This document shows positions 6,720 to 57,299 of a stretch of 64,000 nt of DNA, one piece after another. The position numbers and the translations under genes were made by a program. The stretch spans positions 320,001 to 384,000 of the forward strand of contig CAWHAE010000008.1 of the NCBI GenBank assembly GCA_963827235.1. The letters are read 5' to 3'. Numbering within the stretch: position 1 is the first letter of the stretch; every line of letters starts with the position of its first letter. The notes beneath the pieces are model-generated. The model worked only from the letters and a program-made list of their open reading frames with translations. It was not told the origin of the DNA and did not search any database. The stretch comes from an uncultured bacterium (GTDB lineage Bacteria; Chloroflexota; UBA5177; JANWHV01).

Positions 6720-6805
6720 AATCCTACCTTCTCTCTCCTGCGCCGGCAGAGCCGACGACGACTTCGCATGTACCGCGCGGCGACTGCGGCGGGTACACGC
6801 GATCG

Positions 6806-7138: not shown

Positions 7139-7193
7139 GGTATCCTCACCAATTGCGCGCCTCGCGGGCCCTTTTCGGGCGCCACAAGGACAG

Positions 7194-20779: not shown

Positions 20780-20786
20780 GGCACTT

Positions 20787-21857: not shown

Positions 21858-21934
21858 CGAAGACAGTCTCCGTTCTGGCCTCGGGCGCTCGGCAAGCCGC
21901 CATACCTGCCGGACCGGGCGTCGAAATGTTCGTG

Positions 21935-21943
21935 TGTTATACT
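21935..21943 (+). promoter_or_regulatory. Extended -10 of the rpsO-pnp promoter
   Basis: TGtTATACT about 50 bp upstream of rpsO. Confidence 0.55.
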
Positions 21944-21991
21944 ACCAGAGATTAAGACGAGAATTACACCCACCAAGGAGCAGTCGATCGG

Positions 21992-22255
21992 ATGGACAGC
22001 CAGACCAAAACAGCCTTGATCGCGCAATATGCCACGGGTTCGGGCGATACCGGCTCGCCCGAGGTGCAGTGTGCGCTCTTGACGCAGCGCATCAACGAGC
22101 TGCGAGAGCATTTCAAGGTCCACAAACACGACCACCATTCCCGGCGCGGTCTGTTGATGATGGTGGGACAAAGGAAGCGTTTGCTTTCCTACCTGGCGGA
22201 GCGGGATGTTGAGCGGTATCGCTCCTTGCTGTCTCGGCTCGGTCTGCGCAAGTAG
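21992..22255 (+). CDS. rpsO: 30S ribosomal protein S15
   Basis: [19 protein letters not shown]. Confidence 0.98.
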
Positions 22256-22284
22256 CCGGAGACGCGCATATTCATGGAGGAGCG

Positions 22285-39140: not shown

Positions 39141-39262
39141 GGAAGGTCACTTCTCCACTTGGGTATCTCAATATTGGGCACTGCTAAGTAGCAGCGCAGC
39201 ACACGGCCTCCGACATGCCGAAGCTTGCCCCGCGTGCCCACCGGATCTCCCGTGCGTCGGCT

Positions 39263-39706
39263 TCAGGCCTGCGGTGAGTCGGTTCCCGCGGGAAGCACCA
39301 TGACGTGCGGCGCTCTGGCGTGGCGCCCGATTGCCTGCTCGAGCGCCTCGTCTAGCTCTTCAATCAGGTACGGCTTGGCGAGGAAGGTGTGAGCACCGGC
39401 ATGCCGTGCCAGCAGCTCGGGATCCCCGGACGACACGTATGCGCTCAGCAGCACAATTGCGACTGGTGCGCGATCCCTGATGATCGAGCATGCCGTCAAT
39501 CCATCCTGACCAGGCAGGCCCCAATCAATGACAACGACGTCAGGCCGCTCTCGAGCCACGAGCTCAACCACCTCTATGCCGTCGCGAGCCTCGGCCACGA
39601 CCTCATGCCCAAGCTCGGCTAGCTGCTGCCGAAGCAGCTCGCGGATCTGGGAATTGTCTTCCGCAACTACTACTCGGTACTTCGCCGGCACGCTGCCCGC
39701 TATCAT
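39263..39706 (-). CDS. Stand-alone response regulator receiver
   Basis: VVVAED, PDVVVID, LAKP; no output domain. Confidence 0.88.
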   Translation of the reverse strand: MIAGSVPAKYRVVVAEDNSQIRELLRQQLAELGHEVVAEARDGIEVVELVARERPDVVVIDWGLPGQDGLTACSIIRDRAPVAIVLLSAYVSSGDPELLARHAGAHTFLAKPYLIEELDEALEQAIGRHARAPHVMVLPAGTDSPQA

Positions 39707-39990
39707 CGTGCAACTCCACCCGCCACATCCCGCAGCCACACCCGCGCAACCAACCCACAATTGGGCACGCCCTGCACACTGACTCGCTGCGTCACTGTAG
39801 CGGAGACCGGTCAATGTGTCAAAGCGGTTGGAGTTGAGGTGTTGTGCCGGCCGAGAAGCCGGAAGCGCACCCGTAGACTCGAACAACTGTTCGCACGCGG
39901 AAAGCAAGATGGATCACGGCACGGATACAAATGCAATGGCCGGCTCACGTGCCAATTGTGCCCAGATGACTGGCTGGTATGAAGCTCGAA

Positions 39991-40260
39991 CTATGATGCC
40001 GAGGACTGCATTGGCATCGCAGTTGCGCTACGCCGGCGCCGGCGCCGGCCCACATATCCTTTGGTCGCGTAAGGCGTGGCGTCACCCCAAGATCGAATCA
40101 GGCTAGTGCTGCCGCAGCGGCCGCATGTCAGGATCGAGCGCGGTGGCAATGCCAACGCCTCGGCCTGGCTGACGGGCACGCTGCTTGCCTCGGTGTGGTG
40201 AACGAAGCCCCGGCTATTTGAGCAGCTCAAACACTCGATCTGCCGCGCATATAGTCCCAC
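39991..40260 (-). CDS. Small CxxC..CxxC zinc-finger protein with Arg-rich tail
   Basis: GGGAG RBS with GTG start; CLSC and CGRCG. Confidence 0.6.
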   Translation of the reverse strand: MGLYARQIECLSCSNSRGFVHHTEASSVPVSQAEALALPPRSILTCGRCGSTSLIRSWGDATPYATKGYVGRRRRRRSATAMPMQSSAS

Positions 40261-40592
40261 TGGAGTCTCCCTATACTGCCACCCGGCGCCACATTCGGCA
40301 CCAAAGCCGCGGATCACCCGACTGCACTCCGCGGTGTCAGTCGTTTAGTGCTGGCTCCATTCTGTTACGGAGAGCTTTGCGGCGCACCACCTGTCCGGTG
40401 GATTGCAGGGCGGAAAAGGGACTAGCCCACGAACTCATCCATTGCCATACGTGAGGCCGATGCGCCTGCACCCATTTATCGCCATAATCAACAACGGCGG
40501 AGAGCATGGAGCCAGCCTCGTGGTTGAGGCCATGGCATGCAGAACCGACACGTGGGGATGTGGGCTCGGCAATGCATGCTCGTGGGAGTATC

Positions 40593-41123
40593 ATGGAGAA
40601 GCGCATGAAGCCGGTGTTGCTGGCAGCGTTTCCGTCGCTAGACCAGGCACTGGGCGCTATTGACGATCTGGTGATTGCGGGCTTCGGCGGAGATGCCGTG
40701 GGCTTGGCTTCCCGGGAGCGACCGTACGGCGAGTTGCAGCGTGAGAGTCAGGATCCGGTGAATGCGGCTGGCAAACAGGACATCGCGGGCCAAGCTGATT
40801 TCTTCTCGCGGCCTGATGATGGCGGTGGGTGCGCGCGCAGCAAGTACCGCGGAACCGGCACTATCGTGCAAATTCCCGGCGTGGGACCGGTCGCCGTCTC
40901 CGGTCTCTTCGCCGGGGCAGCCGGTGTCAAGCACTGGCTGGCAGGATGTCTCAGCGACACCGACGCCGGTACCTCGGAATGCGGCTACCGTGAGAGCCAG
41001 ATCGGCGCCGGTAAGGCGCTGGTTGCAGTTCTGCCCGAAGGCAGGTCGATTTTGGCTGGCGAAATACTGCAACGGCACGGCGGAGAGTTATCGCGAGCCT
41101 GGGGTCAAACCGCGCGCTGGTAG
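40593..41123 (+). CDS. General-stress-protein-like hypothetical protein
   Basis: AAFPSLDQA..AIDDL..AGF, IPGVGP, GKALVAV..ILQRHG pattern. Confidence 0.6.
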   Translation: MEKRMKPVLLAAFPSLDQALGAIDDLVIAGFGGDAVGLASRERPYGELQRESQDPVNAAGKQDIAGQADFFSRPDDGGGCARSKYRGTGTIVQIPGVGPVAVSGLFAGAAGVKHWLAGCLSDTDAGTSECGYRESQIGAGKALVAVLPEGRSILAGEILQRHGGELSRAWGQTARW

Positions 41124-41262
41124 CAACGGCGCCCGCACATCGTTCGATACTAGTGGTTTGGCGCCAGTTACTGTGACGGCCAGTCTGAGCTTCTGGGCGA
41201 AGCGGCTTGCAGATGTTGTTCTATGCCTACCGTATCCAGGTGGGTCAGACTGAGAGAGTAGA

Positions 41263-41760
41263 GTGGAGCGCCGTCTGCTGACGCTGCGTGTCAAACAGCG
41301 CGTGCTTGGGCCCGGTGCGGACTACGAGATCACCCAGCCAGAGAGCGGCGAGATCGCGTATGTGGTCAAGAGCGTGCCAACCGGCGTCGGTCACTCGTTC
41401 GAGATGCACAACGCTGAGGGCGCCACGATCGCTACCATTCATCAGCACCTGTTGCCGGTGGAGCCAAACTACGTGATCCGTCGCGATGGAATAATCGTGG
41501 GAGAGATTCATCGCGACCTGTCCGCGGTGACCTTTCCCCGCTTTGTCCTGGGCGGCATCGACGGGCTGGTGCTGACTGGCGACCAATCGGATACCAAGTT
41601 CAGCCTGCTATTCCGGGGCGAGGTCGCCGCCCGCGTCGAGAAGGAGCTATCGCACGTGGGCACTGCCTACACGATGAGAATCTCCGGTGACGTGGACATA
41701 GTGACCGCCCTATGCATGCTTGTCGCGGTGGACGATGCCATTGGGCAGGAGGCTGACTAA
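41263..41760 (+). CDS. LURP-one/Tubby C-like (scramblase-related) protein
   Basis: VKQRVL...DYEI, beta-rich body, C-terminal helix ALCMLVAVD. Confidence 0.75.
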   Translation: MERRLLTLRVKQRVLGPGADYEITQPESGEIAYVVKSVPTGVGHSFEMHNAEGATIATIHQHLLPVEPNYVIRRDGIIVGEIHRDLSAVTFPRFVLGGIDGLVLTGDQSDTKFSLLFRGEVAARVEKELSHVGTAYTMRISGDVDIVTALCMLVAVDDAIGQEAD

Positions 41761-41936
41761 TCGCAGGTCCGTCGGAATGAGTGGATACACCGAGGAAGCC
41801 GCCGCGGCGACCCGGCGCATGCGGACATGGACCTGCCACGGCCACTCATGCTGGTGATCCGCCTGACCAACTGCCACCCCAATGATGGCGCAGCGTCATG
41901 GAAGGACGTTGCCAGCCCGCACAAGCCAGGCCCGGA

Positions 41937-44336
41937 TCACAGACATGCGGCCTGCGGCTCGTCAGGGTACAGAAGCACGGTGTGCTCTTGCCATGCCACA
42001 AAATTCAGCACGTCGTCTCCCGGGACGCTGAGCACCGTCGTATCGTCGGGGCGTGCCACCTTCAAGGCCTGGGGCCGGTAGGCGATGCGGCAGGGTCCGT
42101 CCCGGTCTGCTCTGACTTGAGCCCAGGTCAGACGCCCACCGTCCCACTCGAGGTCAATGGTGAAGCCGCCGCGAGCGCGCACCCCCCGCACCGATCCCGT
42201 TGGCCACGCGCTGGGCAGTGCCGGCAAGAGATCGATCGTCCCGGTGTGGCTCTGTACAAGCATCTCGAAGATGGCGGACGCGCCTCCGAAGTTGCCGTCT
42301 ATCTGGAAGGGAGGGCAGTTGTCGAACAGATTCGGCAGCGTCGAATCACGCAACAGGGCGATCAGGTGCTCGTGCGCTCGGTCGCCCATGCCGAGTCGTG
42401 CCCATTGACCGACCATCCACGCCCTACTCCAGCCAGTGTGTCCACCGCCGTTGGCGAGGCGGCGATCGAGAGATCGGGCCGCGGCTCGGGCGAGCATGGG
42501 CGAGCCGCTCGGCGTGATCTGCCGGCCCGGATGCAGGCCGAACAGATGGGAGATGTGGCGATGACCGGGCTCCACCTCGTCAAAGCCGGCAGACCACTCC
42601 AGTAGCTCGCCATATCTGCCGGTCCGCGGCGGCAGCAAGCGCGCTCGCGCCGTCTCCAGCTCTGCCCGGAAGTCCTCATCGGTTTGCAATATCGTGCTTG
42701 CCGCGATGCTGTTGGTGAACAGATCCCAGATGAGCTGCATATCCATGGTCGCTCCAGCGGACACGGCGCTCTCCCGGCCATGTGGGTCACGAAACGTGTT
42801 CTCGGGCGAGGTGGAAGGACAGGTCACCAGGTTGCCGTCCGGAGCCTCGACGAGCCAGTCCAGGCAGAACTCCGCCGCGCCTTTCATCAGGGGATATGCG
42901 CGGTCGCGCAGGAACGTGAGATCGCCACCGAAGGCATAGTGTTCCCAGAGGTGCAGGCAGAGCCATACCCCGCCCATCGGCCACATAGTCCAGTTGGGCG
43001 GCGAGTGGCCGTCCCCTGCCGTCCGCGTGCCCCGCCAGATGTCGGTGCCGTTGTGCGCTGCCCACCCACGGCAGCCATACGTCAGGCTCGCGGTCTTCCG
43101 TCCGTCCACGCTCAGGTCGCCGACAAGGCTCAGCAGGGGCTCGTGGCACTCCGCCAGGTTCGCCACCTCCGCGGGCCAGTAGTTCATCTGCGCGTTGATG
43201 TTCAGCGTATAGTCACTTCCCCAGATTGGCCGAACCTGGTCGTTCCATATTCCCTGAAGGTTTGCGGGCTGAGTGCCCGGCCGCGAGCAGGAGATCAGGA
43301 GATAGCGACCGAACTGCGCGTACAGCGCGGCGAGCTGGGTATCCTGCTCGATGTCTCCGGCGCGCAAGCGCTCGTCCGTCGGCACCTCCGGCGCGGACGA
43401 TCGGCCCAGCGTGAGTGTGACCCGATCATACAGTCTCCGGCAGTCCGCGACATGTGCGGTCCGCAGATCATCGTACGTGCGCATGCCGGCCTCGGCCAGC
43501 GTGCTCTCGATCGACGCGGCAATTGCCTCGGCCGATAGATCGGGCGCGGCGCCGAAACCCCTGTAGCCCGTGCCGCCGGCTATGAGCAAGGTCACGGCAG
43601 TGGCATCGTCAATCTGCACAATTCCCGATCCGGTGCTGACTCGTCCGCCTTCGGGGAGCACCAGCACGCGGGCCTCGAAACGCATTCCCTTCCCTTCGGC
43701 CTCGTGGTACGCGACTGGATTCTCGCTCGCAAGATGATGCGCCACCACGTGGCTGGGCGCTTTGCCTCGCACAGCGAGCCCGTTGTTCCCAACCGGGACC
43801 CTCGAGGCCTGCAGGGGACTGCTCAGGCCTACCACAAACGACAGTAAGGCCTCGTCGGTGCAGGTCATGCGCACGACCACCACCTGATGAACGGCGGAGG
43901 CGAATACCTCGCGAGTGAACAGCGCGCCGCCCACGCGGTAGCGCACTCGGGCCACGCCGCTGCCCACAAGCAGCTCCCGCCGATAGTCGTGCGCCGGCTC
44001 GGCGTGCGTGCACTGGAGGTAGAGATCGGCGAGCGGCAGGTATGACTCGGTGAATGGGCCCTGAAAGCTCTTCGCGAGCTCTTCTGCCTCCGCATACTTG
44101 CGCTCCCGCAGGATGAGGCGTCGAATCTCCTGCAGGAGCGCAGGTTCTGGACAGGGATGCGCGTCTTCGGGAAAGCCGGACCACAGCGTGTCCTCGTTCA
44201 GTTGCAGCCGCTCCAGCTCGACGCCGCCGAACACCATGGCGCCGAGGCGGCCGTTGCCGATCGGCAACGCCTCTGTCCACTCGCCCGCAGGACGGTTATA
44301 CCAGAGGCACTGAGTCTCAGTTTCGGGATCGGTCAC
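41937..44336 (-). CDS. Glycoside hydrolase family 95 (alpha-L-fucosidase-like)
   Basis: [55 protein letters not shown]. Confidence 0.95.
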
Positions 44337-45298
44337 TGCGGAATCGTCTCGCCGGCAGGCGGAGGATTGAACACCAGCGGCTTGAGGAACTCGGCCGCCG
44401 CCCGTGTGCCTTCCTCCAGGCCCATGAGCGGATCTTCGTGTTCGATACTTAGCACGCCGTCATAGCCGTGCATCTGCAGCAGGCTGATGAAGTCGCGCCA
44501 CCACGCGGCGCCATGCCCGAAGCCGACTGCCCGGAAGACCCACGGCATGGCGGCAGGCACCGCGGGCAATGTGGTGTCGAGGCACCCGTTGATGCCGGTG
44601 TTGTGGGGATCGACCCGCGTGTCTTTGGCGTGCACGTGACCGAGTGCCGGACCGAGCGCCCTGACCACCTCGAGCGGATCCATACCCTGCCACCAGAGAT
44701 GGCTGGGGTCCAGATTGGCCATTATGGTGCCGGAGATTGCGCTGCGAAGACGAAACAGCGAGGCAGTGTTGTAGACGCTCATGCCCGGGTGCATCTCGAA
44801 GCAGAGCAGCACGCCCAGGTCGCGAGCGTAGGCGGCCGCGTCCGTCCAGTACGGAAGGATTACCTCGTCCCACTGCCACGCCAACAGGGTTGCGAAGTGG
44901 TCCGGCCAGGTGAACGTCACCCAGTTGGGATGCGCTCCGCCGTCGGGGGTGCCGGGACAACCGCTCATGGTGACCACGCGATCCACTCCCAAGGCCGCCG
45001 CCAGGCGAATCGTGTCCCGTATCACCTGTGCGTCGTGCTGCGCCACCACCTGCTGCGGATGGACCGGGTTGCCGCTGCAGTTGAGCGCGCTGATGATCAT
45101 GTTCCGGCTCTGCAGGTTGGCCAGGAGACGCCGGCGTGCGCCCGCGTCATCCAGCATCTCCTGAAGGCGGAGATGCGGCGCAGGCGAGAAGTTCCCAGCG
45201 CCCAGCTCGATGGCGGTAATGCCCCATTGCTCGTAGCGGTCCAGGGAATCGGCGAGCGACAGATGCAGTGTGCTGTCGGTGAACACTCCGATACGCAT
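44333..45298 (-). CDS. Sugar phosphate isomerase/epimerase (AP_endonuc_2 TIM barrel)
   Basis: FEMHPG, NLDPSH, HVHAKD, LSIEHED. Confidence 0.9.
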
Positions 45299-45308
45299 GC
45301 TATTCTCC

Positions 45309-46382
45309 TCAGCGTGGCTTATATGCGTTGAACATGGCGATGGCTTGCGCAACGTCCGCTTTGCCCTGGGCGCCATCCGTGAGCGGCTGCTTGCCTGACA
45401 CTATGCAGTCGTGAAAGTGGAGCAACTCCTGTTTGAACGCTTCCTCGAAACCTGCTTGGTGTTCTCGCCGCGTGTAGACGCCATTCTCCATGGCTTCCAC
45501 TACCACCGGCGTGGGCACGCTCTTGAGGAAGGGCGAAGGGAACCGGAGCTCCACCCGGCCGTCGGTGGCCAGGAACGCCAGGTCCTCACGATAGTTGCGC
45601 ACGTCGTCCAGGTAGGTCCAGGTAAGGACGGCGCGCACGTCGTTGCCGTAGGAGAACGTGCTCATCACCGCGTTACCCTCCGCCCAGATTTCGGTGGAAA
45701 GCACGGCATCCGGAGCGCCGATCAGTCCCCTCAGGGCATTGATATCGTGGATGATACTGCCGAGCAGAACCTCCGCGTAGGCGTAGCCGAGCCAGCCCGG
45801 TACGTCCCCCACGGCCTCGCGCACGAGCGAGTCGTACTCGCCTCGCAGGCGCGAGAGGACGTCTGCCGGCACATCCGCGGCGCGATCGATGCGGTGATGC
45901 GCGGAATACAACTGCTCGGCCGGGTGCCAGATATGCACTTCCACAGCGCGCAGATGGCGCAGCCGGCTTACGGCCTGCTGGGCGAAGCGGTAGCCTGGGT
46001 CGAAGCGTTTCATGTAGGCCACCATCAGGATGGTGTCGTGTTGCTCCGCCGCGGCGATCATCTCGTCGGCCTCGCGCAGCGTGAAGCACATAGGCTTCTC
46101 CACCAGCACGTGCCGCCCGGACATGGCAGCGGCTATGGCCGCAGGGGCATGAGATCCGGGAGTGAGCACCAGGACCGCGTCCAGATCGTTGCCAATGAGA
46201 TCGGAGACCTCGGTGTAGCGCGACTCCACGCCGTAATGTTTGCCCACTGTCTCCAGCACGCCCGGTGAGATATCGCAGAGCGCCGCGATCTCGAATCGGT
46301 CGTCCAGCTCTCGCAGATACGGCAGATGCATCATCTGGGCAACGGCTCCGCAGCCAATCACGCCCACGCGCACGCGTTTCAT
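45309..46382 (-). CDS. Gfo/Idh/MocA oxidoreductase
   Basis: VGVIGCG, HVLVEKP, IHDIN. Confidence 0.92.
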   Translation of the reverse strand: MKRVRVGVIGCGAVAQMMHLPYLRELDDRFEIAALCDISPGVLETVGKHYGVESRYTEVSDLIGNDLDAVLVLTPGSHAPAAIAAAMSGRHVLVEKPMCFTLREADEMIAAAEQHDTILMVAYMKRFDPGYRFAQQAVSRLRHLRAVEVHIWHPAEQLYSAHHRIDRAADVPADVLSRLRGEYDSLVREAVGDVPGWLGYAYAEVLLGSIIHDINALRGLIGAPDAVLSTEIWAEGNAVMSTFSYGNDVRAVLTWTYLDDVRNYREDLAFLATDGRVELRFPSPFLKSVPTPVVVEAMENGVYTRREHQAGFEEAFKQELLHFHDCIVSGKQPLTDGAQGKADVAQAIAMFNAYKPR

Positions 46383-46481
46383 CGATCCTCCACACTAGAA
46401 GCACTGCTGTAGAAGCCTCCGGCCGGGGTGGAACGACAGGTGTCACCCGTACCGCGGCCGAGAGATGCGCTGGTTCCAAGG

Positions 46482-47696
46482 TTAGGCATGCAAGAGCTCG
46501 GCGATCGTCACTGCCTGTCCAGTGGCTATGGACTTGTTCGCCGCCACGCCCATGAGCACGGACATGGCGCCGTCCCATGAACCGGCCATGTGGCCCAGAG
46601 GATCCGGCAGGGTCAGCGCCCCAAACAGCCGCTCGAGGAGACGCTCGTCGCCGCCGCCATGATCGCCGGCAGGTTTTGGAATCTCATAGTTCGCCACCGT
46701 ACCGCTCTTGTGGTAGACGGCTATTACGCTGCTGGCTGCTTGCGCCAGCGGCCCGGTCTCGTCCTCACGAAGCTCCATGCGACCCTCTGTGCCCGTCAGG
46801 GTAGCTCGCCAGCCCTCGATCGGACTGAATGCGACGAGCGAATAGCTGAGCTGCGTCCCGCACTTGTAGCGCGCCACCAGACTCATCGTATCCTCTATAT
46901 CTATCTGCTCGGCGTAGACGCAGCGGTCGCGGTAGTAGCCGTCGTATTGCTCGGCGTCGAAGTAGAAGCTCTTCAGGAAAGGATCGGACAGCAGATCGAC
47001 GTAGAACTCGCAGCTACGAGCGTACTTACAGGTGGAGCAGCGCTCGCCGCGTTCCAGGCGCGTGGGGCCATAGAAGCGCAGTTGCCCGAGAGCATAGACG
47101 CGCTCCGCCTCGGCACCAAGCCACCAGTTGATCATGTCGAAATGATGGGTGGCCTTCGTTACCAGCAGGCCGCCAGAGTTCTCTTTCAGCCGGTGCCAGC
47201 GCCGAAAGTAGTCGGCGCCGTGCCGCCGGTCGAGATACCACTCGAAATCGACATTGAGCACCTTCCCGACCGCTCCCTCGAGGAGCAGCTCCTTCGCGCG
47301 GGTGACGTAGGGCATGAATCGATAATTGAATGTGACGGTGACGTGCCCGCCGCTTCGTCGCTCGGCGGCGAGCACGGCGCGGCATTGCGCGTCGTCCACT
47401 ACCATGGGCTTCTCGGCAATCACGGCGCAGCCCGAATCAAGGGCGCGTACGATATAGTCGGCGTGGTAGCGGTCCATAGTGGTGACGATGACGCCATCCG
47501 GCCGCGTATCCCGCAGCATGGAGTCGAAGCCGTCGAAGGCAGGCACGCCGCACTGCCGACCGACGAAGGCGGCTCGCCCTGGATTGGCATCGTACACGCC
47601 GGTCAGCACGGCGCTGGCTGTAAACTGACTCCTGATCGGCTCGGCATACATCTCCAGAGCGCGCTTGCTTGCTCCGGCGAGAACATAGCTCTTCAT
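46482..47696 (-). CDS. Gfo/Idh/MocA oxidoreductase (YteT-like)
   Basis: AEKPM, HGADYFRRWH, THHFD, HGGGD. Confidence 0.92.
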   Translation of the reverse strand: MKSYVLAGASKRALEMYAEPIRSQFTASAVLTGVYDANPGRAAFVGRQCGVPAFDGFDSMLRDTRPDGVIVTTMDRYHADYIVRALDSGCAVIAEKPMVVDDAQCRAVLAAERRSGGHVTVTFNYRFMPYVTRAKELLLEGAVGKVLNVDFEWYLDRRHGADYFRRWHRLKENSGGLLVTKATHHFDMINWWLGAEAERVYALGQLRFYGPTRLERGERCSTCKYARSCEFYVDLLSDPFLKSFYFDAEQYDGYYRDRCVYAEQIDIEDTMSLVARYKCGTQLSYSLVAFSPIEGWRATLTGTEGRMELREDETGPLAQAASSVIAVYHKSGTVANYEIPKPAGDHGGGDERLLERLFGALTLPDPLGHMAGSWDGAMSVLMGVAANKSIATGQAVTIAELLHA

Positions 47697-47742
47697 GCGA
47701 CTCCCTGTATTCGGTTAGGTTGAACAGGTGGCAAACAGTCTG

Positions 47743-47769
47743 GCTGCACCGGCCGGATGCCGGTGCAGC
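47743..47769. repeat. Perfect 11-bp inverted repeat upstream of the sugar operon
   Basis: GCTGCACCGGC-cggat-GCCGGTGCAGC. Confidence 0.6.
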
Positions 47770-48112
47770 GGTCAGCAGTCAATGTCTTGGCGCGCAACGC
47801 CAATAGCGCTGTCGGCCGGCGATTCATCCGCCAAGGCGGCTTTGCCCAATGCTTCCAGCGGGTGCGCCGCGTGGTCGCCTTGCCACAGCTTCTGCGCCCC
47901 GAGGCAGTACGGGTGAACGGCGGCAGCGCCGACACGCTGCCCCCAGTCCGCTTCTGCTGCCCCACACGTCTCGCGCCGCACCTCTACCGCAAAGACAGGT
48001 CCAAGAGCGTAGGAACCTACACCGGACACAGAGTAGGCATCATCCTGCGTCGTCATGCGTTTCACGTGGCTCAGCACGACAGGTTCTGTTCCAACCCAGT
48101 ACCGGTCCCAGC

Positions 48113-51100
48113 CTACCGCCGCTCTTCCGCTTGCAAGGTAGTGCCGAGCTCCGTCGCCTCAGGCATCTCACCAGGCGGCACCCATTCCTCGATCGCCATC
48201 TGGAAGCGCCAGAACCGCTCGAATCGGCACACCACGCTTCCGTCCGCCAGCAGGGACTTGTACGCGATGACCTGCGTGCCGGAGCCCACAGCCTTCGCCG
48301 TTGCCAGCACCTCGTCCGGTTCTGCCTGCAGCGTTAGCGGTAGCCATGCAGTAGGTCCCAGCTCGATTTCCGTGCCCAGCAGAGCGGTGCGAGAGTCTTC
48401 CTCCCGCCATACGATGTAGTGTCCGCCCTTCACTGCCCGCACCATCCCTTCAATCTCCGCTCCGGTCGCCTCCTTCACAAAGTCATCGCGGCGGCACCGG
48501 TGCTCGCCTGTACGCAGCAGCTCCGCCAGATTCTTGATCGCTGCGATCTCGCTTCGGGGCAGCTCTTCAGGCAACACAACATCGTGCGTGTCCGCGGGAA
48601 ATGTGTCGTGAATCAGCGCGAACGCGTCCATCAATGGGTCTTCGAACGCTTCCGGCTCCCCACCGAACTGCCCCTGGAAGCGCAGCACGTGCTGCTGATT
48701 GCGCACCGGGACCAACAGCAGGTCGCGCGGCTCGCGCACTGCGCGCATGAAGCGATATACCTGCACCATTTCGTGCACCGTGCGTCCCGAATGATAGCGA
48801 AGTGACACTTGCATCGCCGATTTTGGATCATCCTCCGGAAGTGCGTCCAGCTTCTCGTCCTCCAGCCACGCTGCAGGCAGATCGAACGACACTTCCACCG
48901 CGCAGTTGCTTTGTCGATGGTTGGTCAGGCGGAGACCGCCGCCAGGAATCGGCCATGGGGCCAGCTCGAGGTTCTCGAGCTGCTCGCCGGTCTCCGGCAC
49001 TACCAACTTCCACGGCACGGCCTGCGCCAGCGGTTCCGCCTGAAGTGTCATCCGCACACCTCGCCGCTCCAACTCCGGATAGGCGTCGAGCAAAGCGAGC
49101 CTGTTATCCCCGCACACGAAATCGTGCGCGAGCATCTCAACGCCCTCGACGGCGACCGGTTCCATTGTCTGCAGCGCCCGATCGAACACATCCGCCATCT
49201 TCATTCCAGCCGGAAGACGCGCTTTCACCTCCATGTGGATCGGCTCCGTCGGTGATCGAGACTCCCGGCGAATTCCCTTCGCCTCCGGCCGCACCACGAG
49301 CGAACTTCCAGGAGGGTTGAGGGCACGCTCTATCTCGCTCCAAGGCTCCTGCAGCGCCGACGGCTGCAGCCGAGCCTGCTGCAGCGCGCCCAGCAACTGG
49401 GCAGCGCTCTCCTGAGGCGCAAGATGCCAGAGCACTTCGAATGCGAACGCCGCCGCGTGCCGGGCCGCCTGCTGCTGCCAGCCTTGCGCGTCCGAACCCT
49501 TCTTGCCAGCGATTAGGTCAGAGATGCCGCGCACGACAAGCCAGGCCACACTATGAGCGTAAACGGCCTCCAGAAAGCCCCGCCCCTCCATCTCAACGGC
49601 TACAGCATCCGAATATTGCTTACGCAGGAACCTGTATGTCGCCGATCTTGTGTGGCTCACCACCTGCTCGCCTGCCGCGATGGGTCCGACGTGCGCGACC
49701 GGCTCACCGCGCCGGGGACCGTGGATACGCGCATGCCACGCCGTGCCACGTCGGCAGGAGCGAGCACGCTGCACCAACCCGAAATCGCTCTGCCCTAGGT
49801 CAGGCCGCATCAGGAACTCCCGATCTGCCTTGCCCGCGTGATAGTTGTACACCTTGGTCGCGGCCACGACGTCGCCGAGCTTGACGTCTTTCAAGCCACC
49901 TCCGACGCCGACGAACAGGCCTACCTGCGCCTCGGCAACGTTCAACGCGCGCTCTGTCTGCTGGGCAGCCGCTACGTTACCCGCGCCGACTTCGGCGATC
50001 AGCACCTCCCACCGGCAGTGCTTTCCTTCGAAGAATCCCCGCTCGTACCCGGTGCCATAGTTCACCTGCTCCACGGGATCGCTGAGGTGCTCCCGCACGG
50101 CATCGTATTCGATGCCCAGTGCGCTGAGTATCACGGCTTTCCCGGGCCGCCCCTTTCCGGACGTTGGCCTCGGGTAGGGTAGAAGTGGGGACCAGCGCGA
50201 CGGACCGCTGTCCGCGCCCTCCGTCAGCGCCGAATACTCCGCCGCTATCGCAGGATCGGCGCGCACATTGCGTCGCAGGGGACCCGACGCCCAGTTTCTC
50301 GCAGTAGGATCGCTCTCGTCCAGCACCCTTCCTGCGCCACTGAGGACGATCTTCAGGGCGCCGGGCAGCCGCTCCCCATACGAGCACCGCAGTAGCGCGC
50401 GCTGCACCCCGCTCTCGACTGCTTCGACATGTTTGGGCTCGATCAGGCCATCGCTGAACGAGCGCGACCCCGCGCGCACCTCCAACCGGACGCCATCCAG
50501 TTCACGTCCCTCGACGCTGACGGACACGGTGCCGGGCGCCAGATACACATCGCGGATACATGCGCGCGTCTCCGCAATTCGCACCCGCACCGTGGCCCTC
50601 CCGACCTCTACAAACCCGGGCTGCACGCGGTTCGCGCCATACACGAGCTCAGTCACCAGCTCCTCGAACCACCGGAACGTGGGACAGCCGGGGCCAGCCA
50701 CGAATCGATCCGGCGGCGTCCATGGCACCGGATCTTGCTGCGACAGGACGTACTCCTTGTATGGCCAGTCGGTCGCCACGAGCGGAAAGGCAAGATGGCT
50801 GCCCACCAGCGGCCACTCCTGTACGCTCGGCACCTCCGACGTGCTGCCTGCTGGCATGACGAAGAAATACACGCGGCCATCCGTATCCGGCCCCGGCATC
50901 CACACGCGGCCACCGCCCTGCAACAGCCACGATCCGACCTCGCCGCCCGGCACCACGCCGCCAAGTACCAGCACCGAGCCATAGTCGCAGACTCGGTTCT
51001 GTGCGGAACGCCGGTTGGACGGCGCCGGTGCTGCCTCCACGAGAAGCACGCGCAGCCGCCAAGGCTCCTCGGCATCACCCCGCACCAGCGCCAGCCAGAA

Positions 51101-51223
51101 GAATACTTGGTCATGCTGACCCAGCAGGCTTGCCAGGTCCTGAATGCTCAGCGACACTCCTCGACCCCCTAGATTCTGTCCGGTGCCATCATCCCGCCCG
51201 CTCAGGCCGCCGTCAAGCCGCAT
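48113..51223 (-). CDS. Multidomain protein with central PNP_UDP_1 (MTA/SAH-nucleosidase-like) domain; putative defence effector
   Basis: AVILSALGIEYDAV, GAGN, LFVGVGGG..LGDVV, AVEMEGRG, RGISD; about 350-aa N-terminal and about 420-aa C-terminal regions of unknown function. Start codon uncertain. Confidence 0.8.
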   Translation of the reverse strand: MRLDGGLSGRDDGTGQNLGGRGVSLSIQDLASLLGQHDQVFFWLALVRGDAEEPWRLRVLLVEAAPAPSNRRSAQNRVCDYGSVLVLGGVVPGGEVGSWLLQGGGRVWMPGPDTDGRVYFFVMPAGSTSEVPSVQEWPLVGSHLAFPLVATDWPYKEYVLSQQDPVPWTPPDRFVAGPGCPTFRWFEELVTELVYGANRVQPGFVEVGRATVRVRIAETRACIRDVYLAPGTVSVSVEGRELDGVRLEVRAGSRSFSDGLIEPKHVEAVESGVQRALLRCSYGERLPGALKIVLSGAGRVLDESDPTARNWASGPLRRNVRADPAIAAEYSALTEGADSGPSRWSPLLPYPRPTSGKGRPGKAVILSALGIEYDAVREHLSDPVEQVNYGTGYERGFFEGKHCRWEVLIAEVGAGNVAAAQQTERALNVAEAQVGLFVGVGGGLKDVKLGDVVAATKVYNYHAGKADREFLMRPDLGQSDFGLVQRARSCRRGTAWHARIHGPRRGEPVAHVGPIAAGEQVVSHTRSATYRFLRKQYSDAVAVEMEGRGFLEAVYAHSVAWLVVRGISDLIAGKKGSDAQGWQQQAARHAAAFAFEVLWHLAPQESAAQLLGALQQARLQPSALQEPWSEIERALNPPGSSLVVRPEAKGIRRESRSPTEPIHMEVKARLPAGMKMADVFDRALQTMEPVAVEGVEMLAHDFVCGDNRLALLDAYPELERRGVRMTLQAEPLAQAVPWKLVVPETGEQLENLELAPWPIPGGGLRLTNHRQSNCAVEVSFDLPAAWLEDEKLDALPEDDPKSAMQVSLRYHSGRTVHEMVQVYRFMRAVREPRDLLLVPVRNQQHVLRFQGQFGGEPEAFEDPLMDAFALIHDTFPADTHDVVLPEELPRSEIAAIKNLAELLRTGEHRCRRDDFVKEATGAEIEGMVRAVKGGHYIVWREEDSRTALLGTEIELGPTAWLPLTLQAEPDEVLATAKAVGSGTQVIAYKSLLADGSVVCRFERFWRFQMAIEEWVPPGEMPEATELGTTLQAEERR

Positions 51224-51314
51224 GGCGGCGCATGCCGACAGGTCTACGCCGACCCCGTCTGCCCCTGGCTAGTATCCTCCCGGGCATAGTCGTTTGCGTT
51301 GACGCAGCACGGAG

Positions 51315-52674
51315 CTAAGAGTTAGCCGGCCGTGGCGCGGGCGGTAGCTCGGGAAGCATGCCGAGCGGGGGTTTCAGGATCAGCGGCTTTCCGGCTATGC
51401 GTCTCAGCAGGTCTTCGTTGTCCCGCCACAGGACGTAGTGCTTGACGCCACGAAGAGGCAGCGGTATATGTCGGATATCGTCGGAGCTGAAAACCACCGG
51501 CAGGAAACGATGATTAACGCTGTGGGCGTCATAGAGCTGCTGCGTGATGATCGCGCCCTCCCAGGGTGCACCCAGACCGACACCCTCAGGCTCAGGCTCG
51601 CCGCGGAATCGGCGCGCGTATCGTTCCGTGCAGACGCACACGACGAAGTCTGCGCCTTCAAGTGATCGTTGCATCCAGAGAGGCAGACCCTCCGGAAAGT
51701 CCAGGTAGTAGCGATCAATATCGGCATCAACACCATCGTCACGCAGCTTGTCAGCGAGCGTAAGGCATTGGTCCTGGTGCTCGTCGGTGTCCCACGCATA
51801 GCTGATGACGGCCGTCGGGGCGATGGGTGCGGGCGATGACGTGCCAGGCGTGACGGCGGCGGACAGTATGGGAGGGGCGGTTACGGCGGTAGGCGTGACC
51901 GTCGCGTGCGTAGCGGCAGGGGCTGTTGCCACCGGCACAGAGTGTGCCTCCTGCTCCAGTGCCTCCGTGCCCAGGTACGTGATGCGCACGCGCAGTGCGG
52001 CGTTGGGAGTGCTGGGGGTCTCGCGCTCTAGGTGGCCCTTGGCCACCAGATGCTCCACTGCGCGCGCAACGCGCTCGTGGTCGAGAAGCTCGAGCTGCTG
52101 AGCCAGAGATGAAGCCGAGTGAAAGCGCCTTCGATCCTGTCTTGCAAGGGACTCTGTCAGTGTCAGGATGCATCTGCGAAGCTGAGATCTCGGACTGGCT
52201 AGTTCGAACAAGAGCTTCAAAGCCAATCTGTACGTTGGCAAGCAGCACGCCGATGATGGAGACCGGACGACCTTGGGCCGTAGGAGACGCTGTGTCGTAG
52301 ATCACGCTCTCCAGGTCACGCAGTTCGGAGAGTCGCATATGTAGATCGACGAACATGGCCTCCGGCTTTAGCCGCGCAGCAACGCCCAGCACAGCGACAG
52401 CCGTCGTCGGAGCATTGTTGCCGAACTGCCACCTTGCCACCGCCTTGTAGTCTTCTTGCTGGAGAGTTCGGAGGATCTGATCGAGTGCGTCGAGCTTGGG
52501 CGCGACATACTGCTTTGCCTGAATGGTTCGATGGGCCTGCAATCCACGGCGGTAGGCAGCTAGCTGGCTGGGCAGTTCACGCTGCATCCAGCCTATAGCC
52601 ATGCCGATCCAGCTTGCGTCCCTCTTGACGTCGAACTGGAGCCTGGGAAGTCTGGCTCCATGGATCTGATTCAA
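51315..52674 (-). CDS. SEFIR/TIR-domain protein with upstream winged helix (frameshift at about 52185; start uncertain)
   Basis: AVISYAWD, LADKLRDDGVDADID, WMQRSLEGADFVVCVCTERY, GAPWEG, RFLPVVF; wHTH VARAVEHLVAKGHL..RITYLG. Confidence 0.8.
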
Positions 52675-52790
52675 CGGCCTTAGCCTTCAGCTGCGGTGGT
52701 CACGACCCTCTGGCTCCACTGCGCACGCCAGATGTCGATCGCCGGCTAGAACGACATACCCGAGATCGAACTTGCAGCAGCGTGGCGCTC

Positions 52791-54182
52791 TCACGTGTGA
52801 GGGCCCCGCGCAGCAGTACCCTCCGCCTCGATCGCAGCCAACTCCGCCTCCGTCGGCTTCTCGACCTGCGAGCCATGCCGCACAAAGACATCACCAGAGT
52901 GGATTCGGTGCTGCTCATCGCCCAGATCGGACTTTACGCGGTAGGGCAGCTTCCGCCGATCTCGCAGCACTTCTATTTCACCGACAGGCCCTACTCGGTA
53001 GTCGACGACCCGGTACCGGAGGTCCACTACTGGCTCTGTGTACATGGCAACGACCTGCTCAAAATGATCCTGGCTGAGCCTCGGGTCCGGCGGTCCGTGG
53101 TAAGCGTGCGTCCTCGGCGCGAAGCCTATCACCAGGAGCCGGGGACCGCTCGCCTGTGTGTTGGCCAGCGCGAGAAGGTCCTTGACCAGTTCTGCCTTCT
53201 CTCCCTTGGTGCCCGTGTGCAATTCGCGCTTGAAGTCGACGCTGGTCGTCTCCCATTGCTCAACCAGATCGTCGATGCGGCGGGACTCGAACACATAGCC
53301 ACGTTTGATTGCCCAGACGATACCGGTCATGGTGGCTACCATACTGAAGTAAGGACCGCCAACCAGCGTGGGTATGCGGATGAGGCCGAGATTGTTTAGC
53401 TCTTCGGCTACGGTGAGCAGCCGTGCCGTGCCGTTTTCCCAGCCAAGTTTGGACAATACTGCGTCGTGCCCTACAGCTGACACCAACACGTGATCGCTCC
53501 CGAGTTGTACACAGAGGTCCATAGTGGCGTTCAGCACCTGCTCCTGGGCAGGTTCAAGCTGCCAGGCGCACGTAGACTCCCACGACTTGGCAGGGTTGGC
53601 GAGATAGGCTCTCCCGGCAGGTGTCAGGCTATACGCGATGCCATGCCCGATGGACTTTATCAGTCCGAACTCTTGCAGTTCCTTGAGCATGCCGAGCAAG
53701 CCATGCCGCTGCGGCGACGTGTGCCACGACGGCCCTTCTGGCAGACTCTCGAAAAGCGCACTGGCGATCGTCTCGGTGTGCACTCCAACATACTCCTGCG
53801 CCAGCCCGGATTTCTCGGCGGCATCAACCGCACTCAAGATCCTGACACACCAGCCGAGGTAGTCCATGACCTGGAGCGCCGGTTGACTCGCTGTCTCGTT
53901 GGACTGGCGGTCGTGGTGTTCACGCGTCCGCGTCAGAATCTGAGCCCGGTATTGCTCCTTCGCCGCCTGAACCAGAGGCGCTACGATCGCGTTGTTCGCG
54001 TAAGAGGCTACCTTTGCGTCGATGGCTGTCTCCATCTGCTGGATGGCTCGCTGGACGCTCGCGGCATTCGTGGGATCGAAGCGCAGCGTCGAGATCGTGC
54101 CGTCCAGCGAGGCGAGTGCGCGCTGCGCGTCCTCGAGCTCGCGCTGCAGCCTGTCAAAGCCACTGACCGACAGGTTCATCAC
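52791..54182 (-). CDS. Schlafen/AlbA_2-domain protein with N-terminal helical domain and two winged helices
   Basis: AAGGAGG RBS; ETTSVDFK, KDLLALAN, LLVIG, FVRHGS; wHTHs LKELQEFGLI..YSLTPAG and AEELNNLGLI..ATMTG. Confidence 0.85.
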   Translation of the reverse strand: MMNLSVSGFDRLQRELEDAQRALASLDGTISTLRFDPTNAASVQRAIQQMETAIDAKVASYANNAIVAPLVQAAKEQYRAQILTRTREHHDRQSNETASQPALQVMDYLGWCVRILSAVDAAEKSGLAQEYVGVHTETIASALFESLPEGPSWHTSPQRHGLLGMLKELQEFGLIKSIGHGIAYSLTPAGRAYLANPAKSWESTCAWQLEPAQEQVLNATMDLCVQLGSDHVLVSAVGHDAVLSKLGWENGTARLLTVAEELNNLGLIRIPTLVGGPYFSMVATMTGIVWAIKRGYVFESRRIDDLVEQWETTSVDFKRELHTGTKGEKAELVKDLLALANTQASGPRLLVIGFAPRTHAYHGPPDPRLSQDHFEQVVAMYTEPVVDLRYRVVDYRVGPVGEIEVLRDRRKLPYRVKSDLGDEQHRIHSGDVFVRHGSQVEKPTEAELAAIEAEGTAARGPHT

Positions 54183-54228
54183 GGCGTATTCCTCCTTTGA
54201 GCTGCGATGCCTCCGCTTAGGTGGCAGC

Positions 54229-54289
54229 CAAGGGACACAGTGCCTCCGTCAAAGGACACAGTGCTGTGTCAAAGAGCCTGTGTCCTTTG
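54229..54289. repeat. Cluster of four GACACAG motifs (direct and inverted)
   Basis: CAAGGGACACAGTGC (54229) and CAAAGGACACAGTGC (54250), 21 bp apart; inverted CTGTGTC (54264) and CTGTGTCCTTTG (54278). Confidence 0.75.
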
Positions 54290-54337
54290 CTGTTCCTCTG
54301 GCGAAGCTATGCTATGCACTGCGTTGCAGCGACGCTC

Positions 54338-56741
54338 TTAGCATTCGCTATAGCCGCAGCCGTGGCACTTTTTGCAGCCTTCCTCCAGGACGAAGGCGGC
54401 ACTGCTGCCGCACTGCGGGCACATGTTGCCGAGCACTCGGGCCCCGGGCAGCCGGCCCGCTGCCGCGGAAGCGTTGCCGTTGCCGTGTCCGTTGCCGTTC
54501 TCGGCGACGTGCTTCTGCATGGGACGCGAGACGATGCTCAGGCCTTGCTGAATGTGCCAGCTCAGTGCCTGTGCCACGGCATCCGGGAGCGACAGCACGC
54601 GCTCGGCGCCGAAGCCAATCGAGCGGCTGCCGCCGATGCCGCGTAGCTGCCCGGCAATCAATCTCAGCCGTTCCTCGGTCGGTATCGGCGAGGGCAGGCG
54701 AAGGTTGAGCGAGATCAGCCTGCCCAGTGCCTCGGCGAGCGCCGCGATGTCCGAACCGGCGCGCCCCACGCTGATGAACACCTCCAGCGGGCCCGCGTCG
54801 TCGGAGTTGACGGTGATATTGGCGGTGCCCTCCGGGGCCCGAAGCTGACGTGTGTAGCCCCAGACCACCGGCGGCCGCGGCTTCACGGTCGTCGGAATGG
54901 CTGGAATGTGCGCTTCGTAGTCTACGCCGGCCCCGGGCACCGGAAGCGGCAGGGCCTGGCCGTCGGTCTCCTCGCGTGCCGGCGTTCAGCACCTGGCCCG
55001 TGCTGAGGCAACCGTCGCGAAAGACGGTGATGCCTTTGCAACCTTCCTGATAGGCCAGCAAGTATGCCCGCGCCACGTCGTCCACCGACGCTTCGTTGGG
55101 CAGATTGACGGTCTTGCTGATGCTGTTGTCGACGCCGCGCTGGAAGGCGGCTTGCATCTTGATGTGCCATTCGGGCAGAATCTCGTGCGCGGTGACGAAC
55201 ACGCGGCGCCACACTGCCGGCAGGATCCAGGTCGGCGACTGTGCCGTGATCGCTGACCCGTTCCATGAGCTCCTCGGAGAAGAAGCCCTGCTCGCGGGCA
55301 ATGTGCTCGAACATGGTGTTGGTCATCACCAGCTTGCGCTCCGTGGGCTTGCCACGATCGACGACGTGCATGAAACGCCAGGGCGAAAGCCGGCTCGATG
55401 CCGCTCGAGCAGTCGGCGATGATGCTGATCGTGCCGGTCGGAGCCACCGTGGTGAGCGTCGCGTTGCGCAGCGGCGGCCCGTCCTTATAGATCGATCGCG
55501 AGAAGTTGGGGAAGGAGCCGCGCGTCTTGGCCAGCTCCTGCGACTCCTGATGCGCCGATGCGGTTGACGAAGGACATGACCTTCTCGCCAAGCGCGAGGG
55601 CATCATTGGAGTCGTACGGAACTGCAAGCAGGAAGAGAAGGTCGGCCCAGCCCATGACGCCGAGGCCGATGCGCCGATTGGCGCGGACAGTGTCCTCGAT
55701 CTGCTCCAAGGGCAGAGGATTGATCTCGATCACGTCGTCCAGGAATCGGGTCGTGACTCGTGTGACCCGCTCGAGCTCTTCCCAGTCCACGGCGTAGGAG
55801 CCATCCTCGTTCTTGACCACGCATTCCGCGAGGTTGATGCTGCCCAGGTTGCAGGCGTCGTAACCGCCCAGCCACTGCTCGCCGCAAGGATTGGTCGCTT
55901 CGATCTGCTCTAGCTCCGGTATCGGGTTGCTGCCGCTGTTGTTAGCACGATCGATGAAGAGCAGGCCGGGATCGCCGGTGGCCCAGGCAGCATCGCAAAT
56001 GCGGTCGAACACCATCTTCGCGTTGAGCGTGCCCGTGACTTTCCTTGTGTGAGGGTCGCGCAGCTCGTAGTCGCCCTCGCGATCGAGGGCATGCATGAAC
56101 GCCTCCGTCGCGGCGACCGAGATATTGAAGTTCGTGATATCTCTGAGTCCAGTTTCCGGATCCGGGCGCTTGCAGTCTATGAACTTGAGGATATCCGGGT
56201 GGTCGACACGCAGCACACCCATGTTGGCACCACGTCGCGTGCCTCCTTGCTTCACCGCTTCGGTGGCAGCGTTGAACACGCGCAGGAAGCTGACGGGGCC
56301 GCTGGCTACACCGCGCGTCGTGGCGACTTCGCTGCCTTCCGAGCGCAGGCGCGATAGTCCGAAGCCGGTGCCGCCACCGCTCTTGTGAATGATCGCGGCG
56401 TACTTAATGGCGTCGAAGATCTCGGGAAGACTGTCGCCGACCGGAAGGACAAAGCAGGCCGACAACTGCTGTCCGTTCTGCTTCCCGGCGTTCATCAGCG
56501 TCGGGGAGTTGGGCATGAACTGGCGCTCGACCATGACCTGGTAGAAGCTCTCGGCCACACCGGTCACGCCGGCATCGTCGGCTCCCCACGCGCGCTCGGC
56601 CTGAGCCACCGCATCGGCCACGCGCCAACACATCTGGTCCTCGTCTTCCAACATCTTGCCGTCTTGGCGCCAGAGGTAGCGTTCCTTCAGCACACGTGAA
56701 GCACTTTCCGACCACCGCCCCTTCTTGCGCTCAACCATCAT
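54338..56741 (-). CDS. nrdJ: Class II (adenosylcobalamin-dependent) ribonucleotide reductase with C-terminal TSCPD/Zn ribbon (about 4 frameshifts)
   Basis: [65 protein letters not shown], spread over five frame segments (breaks at about 55553, 55373, 55227, 54950). Confidence 0.9.
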
Positions 56742-56839
56742 CGGCCCGTCATCCTTCCCTAGACTGTATGTGGCGTTGCTCTGGGAATGCGCTTCCCCGC
56801 ATTGACGGCACTCCGCCGTGCTGATGCTGGACCGTGCCT

Positions 56840-57299
56840 CTAGTCGTGGCGCACTCGCTCGATGGCCTCTTGGAGCTGGCCAAGCGAGTCGAACCGCAGA
56901 TAGACCGACGCGAACCGAAGATAGGCGATGTCGTCGAGCTCCCGCAGCCTGGCCATCACGAGCTCGCCAATGGCCTGGCTGCTCACCTCGGACGCGCCCT
57001 GCTTGAACAGCTCAGTCTCGACATCGTCCACGAGGTTGTCGACGGCATCAGCTGGAATCGGCAGACGATGGCAGGCCGTCGAGACCCCTCGGCGTAGCTT
57101 GTCGCGACTGTAGTCCTCACGCTGGCCGTTCTTCTTCACCACCGAGAGCCCCACGTGCTCCAGCCGCTCGTACGTCGTGTACCTCTGCCGGCAGGCGGTA
57201 CACTCGCGGCGCCTCCGCACGCTTCCACCGGCTCTTCGTCTCCGTTTCGCGCGAGTCAATCACGCGGGAGTCGTTGTGGCCACAGTAAGGACACTTCAC
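56840..57299 (-). CDS. nrdR: Transcriptional repressor NrdR (frameshift at about 57235)
   Basis: MKCPYC..SRVIDSR, then RRRRECTAC..YTTYE, ATP cone, AYLRFASVY. Confidence 0.92.

Follow-up and report, generated by a model that had tools for sequence, protein, structure and literature searches.

Three putative sensor-effector genes side by side in a variable region downstream of nrdJ in a Chloroflexota genome

We analyzed a 64,000-nucleotide window from the genome of an uncultured Chloroflexota bacterium (contig C8, positions 320001 to 384000; the assembly comprises 7.98 Mb in 21 contigs and is 95.9% complete, with 9% contamination), in which three putative defense genes lie next to each other downstream of the ribonucleotide reductase gene nrdJ. 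For one protein of the window, the nearest relative with a named source came from a Chloroflexota metagenome-assembled genome. An initial annotation had described them as three same-strand genes about 100 bp apart, carrying Schlafen, SEFIR/TIR and PNP nucleosidase domains, and had proposed that they form an undescribed antiphage locus. Indeed, three co-oriented minus-strand reading frames occupy positions 48113 to 54182 (Table 1). They are separated by gaps of 116 bp (52675-52790, genes 1 and 2) and 91 bp (51224-51314, genes 2 and 3), and the domain calls were right, with Pfam scores of 28.6 bits for Schlafen, 45.1 bits for SEFIR (TIR_2, 39.1 bits) and 81.3 bits for PNP. All three genes are present, but the middle one is not a single open frame in the assembly. 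The flank that had been called a sugar operon contains a GH95 glycosidase, a xylose-isomerase-like TIM-barrel protein and two GFO/IDH/MocA oxidoreductases. As annotated, the three genes had no match to NTPase, cyclase, methylase or integrase families in Pfam, PADLOC or NCBIfam. Furthermore, a motif check found no Walker A motif in any of the three proteins, and no family match to a CD-NTase, to two-component partners or to a STAND NTPase was obtained in the genes or their flanks. A promoter and terminator scan of positions 47600 to 54600 gave counts at chance level, with no terminator-like site between the genes.

Table 1. Features of the locus (window coordinates)
Feature	Position	Strand	Basis
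Variable region between two blocks syntenic with the congener G001	41755-54337		tblastx
Gene 1 (P0004, 463 aa): helical extension, two winged helices, Schlafen/AlbA_2 nuclease domain	52791-54182	-	Open reading frame, Pfam SLFN_AlbA_2, AlphaFold2 model, 122 homologs
Gene 1, residues 1-105: three long helices (6-31, 40-59, 67-99)	53868-54182	-	Alignment A1, AlphaFold2 model
Gene 1, residues 108-294: two winged helices (108-197, 206-294)	53301-53861	-	VIA-align
Gene 1, residues 300-460: AlbA_2/Schlafen domain	52803-53285	-	Foldseek, VIA-align
Gene 2 (about 450 aa when the break is read through): N-module, winged helix, Ala/Pro/Thr linker, SEFIR	51315-52674	-	Frame-broken in the assembly; P0235 matches, codon-position GC
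Gene 2 N-module, about 160 aa	52194-52674	-	No Pfam, NCBIfam or PADLOC match
Gene 2 frame break (approximate)	52175-52200	-	Frames overlap on P0235 residues 163-167
Gene 2 winged-helix region (P0002 residues 17-100)	51942-52193	-	65% identity to P0235 residues 163-246
Gene 2 SEFIR/TIR domain, C-terminal (P0002 residues 144-281)	51399-51812	-	Pfam, PADLOC
Gene 3 (P0001, 1036 aa): N-part, PNP nucleosidase, C-module	48113-51223	-	Open reading frame; one codon-position GC pattern throughout
Gene 3 N-part, residues 1-355	50159-51223	-	No relative in the searches made
Gene 3 PNP_UDP_1 domain, residues 363-596 (EMEG 544-547, D569)	49436-50137	-	Pfam, 81.3 bits
Gene 3 C-module, residues 610-1036 (427 aa)	48116-49396	-	HMMER, alignment A4, model

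In gene 1, the SLFN_AlbA_2 match covers residues 311-442 (cut-off, 25.3 bits). A protein search returned 122 relatives with 32-46% identity, nearly all of them 350-370 aa long and covering query residues 105-463. Those with an organism named by the source came from Chloroflexota, Acidobacteriota, Actinomycetota and Capsulimonas. In the AlphaFold2 model (predicted local distance difference test [pLDDT], 89.7), the AlbA_2 domain is preceded by three long helices and a pair of winged helices; the N-terminal extension that forms the long helices (residues 1-105) is missing in 25 of 27 aligned homologs. With VIA-align, residues 108-197 were superimposed on 2x4h (Z 11.1, root mean square deviation 1.7, 70 aligned) and residues 208-292 on 8pw0 (Z 11.1, deviation 1.5, 70 aligned). 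The winged helices resemble SSo2273 and DR2539 (Z about 11), and MarR-family proteins scored Z values of about 10. For the AlbA_2 domain, Foldseek matched the AlbA_2 domain of SAMD9 (7ksp, E 2.6e-5), the tRNase domain of SAMD9 (9o0d) and SLFN13 (5yd0); the E values for SAMD9, SLFN13 and DIP2311 ranged from 2.6e-5 to 1e-4, and DIP2311 (3lmm) was also recovered by VIA-align (Z 10.6, 135 aligned).

The gene 1 domain contains the stretch WETTSVDFK, which corresponds to E311-x4-D316-x-K318 (53229-53252, minus strand). In the 28 sequences of the family (alignment A1), E311 and K318 never vary, and either D or E occupies position 316. Prokaryotic Schlafens guard bacteria against phages by cutting tRNA and have the catalytic motif Ex4(E/D)xK; according to the same study, they occur in 55 domain architectures, and fusions to a helix-turn-helix (HTH) domain make up 8.8% (PMC13056530). 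Since the motif of gene 1 is that of the prokaryotic Schlafens, which have been shown in print to act against phages, gene 1 is a new member of a published kind and fits the HTH-fused Schlafen class. A PADLOC run had been suggested by the initial annotation. It matched gene 2 with the bSEFIR model (1.9e-43) and gave weak, domain-level matches for genes 1 and 3, the one for gene 1 being PDC-S50 (1.1e-8) over the AlbA_2 part. A six-frame search of the genome with PF04326 missed gene 1 itself and was uninformative. In the public sequencing run X1, which is labeled as an anaerobic digester metagenome, a 151-nt contig with a depth of 2.7 is identical to window positions 53019-53169 in gene 1, which is too little for a statement on habitat.

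We also looked at the neighborhoods of gene 1 homologs, using 66 neighboring open reading frames (ORFs) at 19 of 22 loci (the three weakest, L046-L048, were left out) and raw counts. Among the best 25 of 61 Pfam families and the best 25 of 33 PADLOC families, nSTAND3 and PDC-S73 were each found twice, and SspD, pAgo with TIR-APAZ, LmuA and PD-T4-6 were found once each among the best-ranked families.

Gene 2 scored higher with the SEFIR model than with the TIR_2 model (E 1.6e-11 and 1.2e-9, respectively). The PADLOC bSEFIR match (147.8 bits) covers only positions 37-196 of the 412-position model, and the domain is 49% identical to the N-terminal SEFIR domain of P0236; the protein search with P0002 returned at least four matches. 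In the assembly, the gene is split into frame A (52674 to about 52190) and frame B (52241-51315). Frame A (P0003 residues 3-168) is 57% identical to residues 2-167 of P0235 (E 2e-61), a continuous 533-aa metagenomic protein that frame B matches as well (Table 1), and the codon-position GC pattern switches frame near 52,200. Because both frames match the same continuous homolog, we treat gene 2 as one gene with a break. Its winged-helix region gave weak matches to MarR_2 (E 0.1) and BilQ (E 0.0064).

In P0235, the closest relative, the N-module and winged helix carry a PNP domain in place of the SEFIR domain. The N-module is rare: the relatives found were P0235 and a truncated third copy at locus L049, 86% identical to P0235. 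No match was detected in the 400 other Chloroflexota genomes, and the metagenome contigs provided one locus only. At L049, two co-oriented ORFs lie upstream of the truncated gene (2096-7143, plus strand), one of 659 aa with weak STAND P-loop matches and one of 1038 aa with HEAT repeats.

The break in gene 2 was compared with the state of conserved genes in the window, using 20 ORFs of the congener G001 that have matches of at least 60% identity. Six of the 20 orthologs are split across frames. One of them is nrdJ, which encodes the B12-dependent ribonucleotide reductase (54341-56744, minus strand) and lies in five pieces in three frames when compared to the intact 802-aa G001 ortholog. All five pieces are at one locus, and no second nrdJ copy of the same type was matched in the genome. 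Other G001 orthologs in two frames are located near 21920, 23470, 27050, 57225 and 60200, and the ORF pair 22285-23700 and 23462-24523 jointly matches one 751-aa protein. These split genes suggest an assembly with many indel errors, and because 6 of 20 conserved genes, nrdJ among them, are also frame-broken, such an error rather than decay probably accounts for the break in gene 2. A decaying remnant, in which gene 2 would be a true pseudogene and its neighbors perhaps inactive, could explain this break and the four breaks in nrdJ just upstream. However, indels of the assembly explain better why broken genes include the only nrdJ of its type, and genes 1 and 3 keep uninterrupted frames of 463 and 1036 codons and intact motifs. 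We regard decay as improbable.

Gene 3 is built around a PNP_UDP_1 domain, which matched the PADLOC CBASS effector model "PN-superfamily" (43.5 bits, 3.8e-12) and PDC-M60C (2.2e-11). It is 50-57% identical to PNP domains on STAND, NACHT, AAA_16, NB-ARC, TPR and WD40 proteins, and the relatives named by source are mostly from cyanobacteria and myxobacteria. An alignment of 17 sequences shows no variation in the MEG of the EMEG motif or in Asp 569 (M191, E192, G193 and D215 in alignment A5). With the housekeeping MtnN equivalog model, the domain reached 75.1 bits, below the cut-off of 169. Three other PNP_UDP_1 genes of the genome, all of ordinary size, give stronger matches, and the nearest solved relatives of the domain are housekeeping methylthioadenosine/S-adenosylhomocysteine nucleosidases. 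PNP domains of one specialized clade, present in CBASS Cap17 and Detocs DtcC and at the N termini of Avs proteins, cleave ATP when the cell is infected (10.1101/2023.01.24.525353). We infer that the gene 3 domain may belong to this clade and that Asp 569 corresponds to the Asp mutated in Cap17 and DtcC.

A single protein with SEFIR, TIR_2, PNP_UDP_1 and AAA_16 was also observed (P0012, 853 aa, source name Kamptonema formosum); the SEFIR and PNP effector types of the locus can thus be combined in one STAND-type protein as well. The N-part of gene 3 had no family match in Pfam, PADLOC or NCBIfam, no match in the 400 other Chloroflexota genomes and nothing usable in the ESM Atlas. A relationship between the N-part and the C-module was tried with hhalign and rejected, the probability being very low.

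The C-module was searched exhaustively with HMMER among 1.84 billion representatives and was found in 18 clusters at E <= 1e-3, its own cluster included. In four of the 17 other clusters it is preceded by a PNP domain (P0006, P0238, P0239 and P0241), in six by two N-terminal hydrophobic helices, in one by a weakly matching HNH_2 domain (P0246, E 3.9e-4) and in one by a SEFIR/TIR domain (P0252), while five are short or have no recognized N-terminal domain. A further member, from the Chloroflexota genome G193, has a DUF4365 domain at its front. PADLOC assigned the front parts of the members to the PN-superfamily (four), bSEFIR (one) and CBASS endonuclease effector (one) models, and matched one member each with the PDC-M68A and SduA models, with no match within the C-module itself. 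The module is present in 4 of 401 Chloroflexota genomes, including the one under study. One of them, G392, has a stand-alone 355-aa C-module gene, just upstream of which (L055, 1991-7055, plus strand) a 1184-aa fusion of a protein kinase with an AAA_11/AAA_12 helicase and a 512-aa PLD-like protein are encoded.

Exchange of effectors in this way is what usually marks a sensor. In related proteins the C-module is joined to PNP, SEFIR/TIR, HNH, DUF4365 or membrane helices, so its role in gene 3 is most likely sensing or regulation. Structure searches with the whole 427-residue model (pLDDT 83.2) gave no convincing match. The best Foldseek hits in the PDB were beta sliding clamps (E 1e-3, low match probability, TM-score about 0.1), the best of 48,161 chains in VIA-align reached Z 4.6 with 52 aligned residues, and the best BFVD hit had an E value of 1e-2 and a very low match probability. 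The ESM Atlas contained no usable match to residues 610-1036.

We found no published description of the C-module or the N-module, which lack searchable names and may be listed among the architectures in supplementary tables of papers. The label "undescribed" in the initial annotation therefore needs to be divided. It does not hold for the HTH-Schlafen class, which is published, or for SEFIR and PNP, which are known effectors, but it stands for the modules outside the effector domains of the SEFIR and PNP genes, which are not in PADLOC v2, Pfam, the PDB or the literature found. As judged from the sequence comparisons, what is new here is two effector-swapping modules, the C-module on the one hand and the N-module with its winged helix on the other.

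The chromosomal site was compared between genomes of the genus. According to tblastx, G001 shares two syntenic blocks with the window (L021 1-4990 with 36721-41754, and L021 13507-16405 with 54338-57236). The intervening 12.6 kb of the window and 8.5 kb of G001 do not match each other. The window stretch contains the three effector genes along with those for the GH95 glycosidase and three sugar-type enzymes, whereas the G001 stretch encodes an esterase and, ahead of WD40 repeats, an HTH-TIR-nSTAND1 protein. This G001 gene or gene pair is NLR-like (L021 8667-13078, plus strand): a 755-aa ORF with HTH_31, TIR_2 and nSTAND1 overlaps a 13-blade WD40 ORF of 804 aa, and both may belong to a single frame-broken gene. 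In G003, nrdJ is followed by genes for an MMPL protein and a histidine kinase. In the G003 nrdJ itself (C33, about 20120-22543), query residues 1-291 and 282-396 match blocks that are about 1.2 kb apart in one 1241-aa open frame, which looks like an intein insertion. The site varies within the genus, and defense-type genes are present in two of the three genomes read. No flanking direct or att-like repeats, tRNA or integrase mark a mobile element at the site; the sole Rfam element of the window is a tRNA at 6349-6421.

The initial annotation had left two possibilities: one system attacking tRNA, NAD+ and ATP together, or three single-gene systems collected at a hotspot. We analyzed whether the families occur in each other's neighborhood. 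At 22 loci with a gene 1 relative, neither gene 2 nor the N-module nor any stretch of gene 3 was detected by tblastn (E <= 0.01), and among the 275 ORFs of these loci no neighbor cluster was common to more than two. Among 40 relatives, a gene 3 homolog was found only in G003 (45% identity, residues 436-1018), which has no N-module, and none had a real homolog of gene 1 or gene 2. Furthermore, none of the other two families was present in the C-module contexts of G003, G193 and G392 or in the N-module context of L049. The C-module neighbors are a nucleotidyltransferase and a PIN protein in G193 and the kinase-helicase and PLD proteins in G392, and the neighbors of the N-module are the STAND-like and HEAT-repeat proteins. 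Finally, neither the C-module nor the SEFIR domain was detected in any of five genomes with a gene 1 relative, while both queries matched in the genome under study. Wherever inspected, homologs of each family were never accompanied by the other two.

These data bear on the idea of a single co-transcribed and cooperating system, in which a shared cue, bound for example by the winged helices, would trigger the attack on tRNA, NAD+ and ATP, or in which the proteins would regulate each other. The arrangement on one strand, with short gaps and no promoter- or terminator-like site above chance, is consistent with it, as are the winged helices in both gene 1 and gene 2. However, the families occur separately, every protein already combines a non-effector part with an effector as in single-gene systems, and the effector swaps take place inside single proteins. 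We consider a joint system to have little probability. Of the two alternatives, the hotspot of single-gene systems agrees with the separate occurrence of the families and with the variability of the site among congeners, while adjacency alone speaks for the joint system.

We thus favor, with moderate confidence, the view that three independent single-protein sensor-effector genes have accreted in the variable region downstream of nrdJ. They would be abortive-infection-type genes gathered side by side. In gene 1, an infection cue would activate the Ex4DxK nuclease, which would cut tRNA. In gene 2, the N-module and winged helix would act via the flexible linker on the SEFIR domain, leading to NAD+ depletion. 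In gene 3, the immune-type PNP nucleosidase would cleave ATP, with the C-module sensing or regulating. The domains, the intact motifs, the effector swaps, the separate occurrence of the families and the variable site are observed, while the defense role is presumed and the substrates and the activation by phages are inferred from the literature on the domains. Indeed, the activities that had been considered established are in print for the Schlafen tRNase (PMC13056530), the PNP ATP nucleosidase (10.1101/2023.01.24.525353) and SEFIR defense (10.1101/2022.05.11.491447), and the second of these articles says in its discussion that SEFIR degrades NAD+.

Several observations weigh against this view of three independent defense genes. 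Co-transcription is possible, given the co-orientation, the short gaps and the lack of a terminator-like site between the genes. The neighbors of the Schlafen homologs are mixed, with few defense genes and with housekeeping genes such as those for Cpn60, GH31 and an aminotransferase. The gene 2 and gene 3 families are tiny, so that separate occurrence could be inspected in three C-module contexts and one N-module context; moreover, the G003 contig ends just upstream of its PNP gene. The PNP domain of gene 3 scores higher with the MtnN model than with the PADLOC effector model. Finally, gene 2 is frame-broken as assembled, and the one public run, which contains 5% of the sampled words, has contigs that leave positions 52,036-52,219 uncovered.

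It is also conceivable that the proteins do not act against phages but are DNA-binding regulators or metabolic nucleosidases, or that they belong to a different conflict or cell-death program such as kin discrimination or toxin-antitoxin-like addiction. Sources often name proteins with AlbA_2 and winged-helix domains as DNA binding, many neighbors of the Schlafen homologs are housekeeping genes, and 30.4% of the prokaryotic Schlafen genes are located away from defense genes (PMC13056530); the Ex4DxK motif of gene 1, however, is intact and conserved. A metabolic role of gene 3 would agree with its housekeeping solved relatives, but the genome has the three stronger, ordinary-sized PNP_UDP_1 genes elsewhere, and P0001 stays below the MtnN equivalog cut-off. 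The patchy distribution, with the C-module in 4 of 401 genomes, also argues against such a function, as do the association of the modules with PNP, SEFIR, HNH and membrane helices, which belong to known defense effector sets, and the TIR-STAND-WD40 gene at the equivalent site of the congener. A role outside antiphage defense is thus unlikely, although somewhat less so than decay or a joint system.

If the independent-gene view is correct, the locus offers defense research two leads: the C-module (about 420 aa, rare and with no recognizable solved fold), which is wired to at least five kinds of killing domain, and the even rarer N-module with its winged helix, which is wired to SEFIR or PNP. 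Considering that effector swapping is a sensor signature, both modules may recognize phage cues that are not yet known. The farthest-reaching possibility is that the two are new infection sensors, each defining a modular effector-swapping family, and that they act together with the HTH-Schlafen as one co-transcribed unit halting translation and depleting NAD+ and ATP. We consider this combination very improbable. In summary, the locus does not appear to provide a new multigene system but adds an example of the HTH class of prokaryotic Schlafens, which is not represented among the seven systems tested in PMC13056530.

Gene 1 is closest to the prokaryotic Schlafens (pSlfn) of Perez Taboada et al. 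(Nat Microbiol 2026, PMC13056530), with which it shares PF04326, the Ex4(E/D)xK motif, the HTH fusion and the single-gene organization, and its fold matches the nuclease domains of SAMD9 and SLFN13. In that article, the seven systems tested had Ig-like, DUF262, HisKinase or unannotated fusions and none had an HTH fusion, whereas gene 1 belongs to the HTH class. It differs further by the 105-residue helical N-extension, which is mostly missing in its own family. The resemblance to PDC-S50, an untested candidate in PADLOC-DB v2, is limited to the AlbA_2 domain and does not extend to the architecture.

Gene 2 resembles bSEFIR (Millman et al. 2022, 10.1101/2022.05.11.491447) in that SEFIR outscores TIR, the PADLOC model matches and a single protein is involved. 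The bSEFIR family, however, is defined in that report by an N-terminal SEFIR domain, while in gene 2 the domain is C-terminal, behind the N-module, winged helix and linker. The C-terminal part of the PADLOC profile has no match in gene 2, which is in addition frame-broken. Given the C-terminal position of its SEFIR domain, gene 2 would at most work like bSEFIR and is not a member of this family.

Gene 3 shares with the Cap17, DtcC and Avs-type PNP effectors (Rousset et al. 2023, 10.1101/2023.01.24.525353) the PNP_UDP_1 domain with EMEG and Asp and the match to the PADLOC PN-superfamily model. It has neither the CD-NTase or SAVED of CBASS, nor the two-component partners of Detocs, nor the STAND NTPase of Avs, and unlike in Cap17, DtcC and Avs, its PNP domain has an internal position, with a unique 355-aa N-part before it and the 427-aa C-module behind it. 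PDC-M60, likewise an untested candidate of PADLOC-DB v2, resembles gene 3 through PDC-M60C in the PNP part and not in the architecture. The nearest relatives of the gene 3 PNP domain are found on STAND, TPR, WD40 and NACHT proteins, a further point of resemblance to the Cap17, DtcC and Avs-type effectors.

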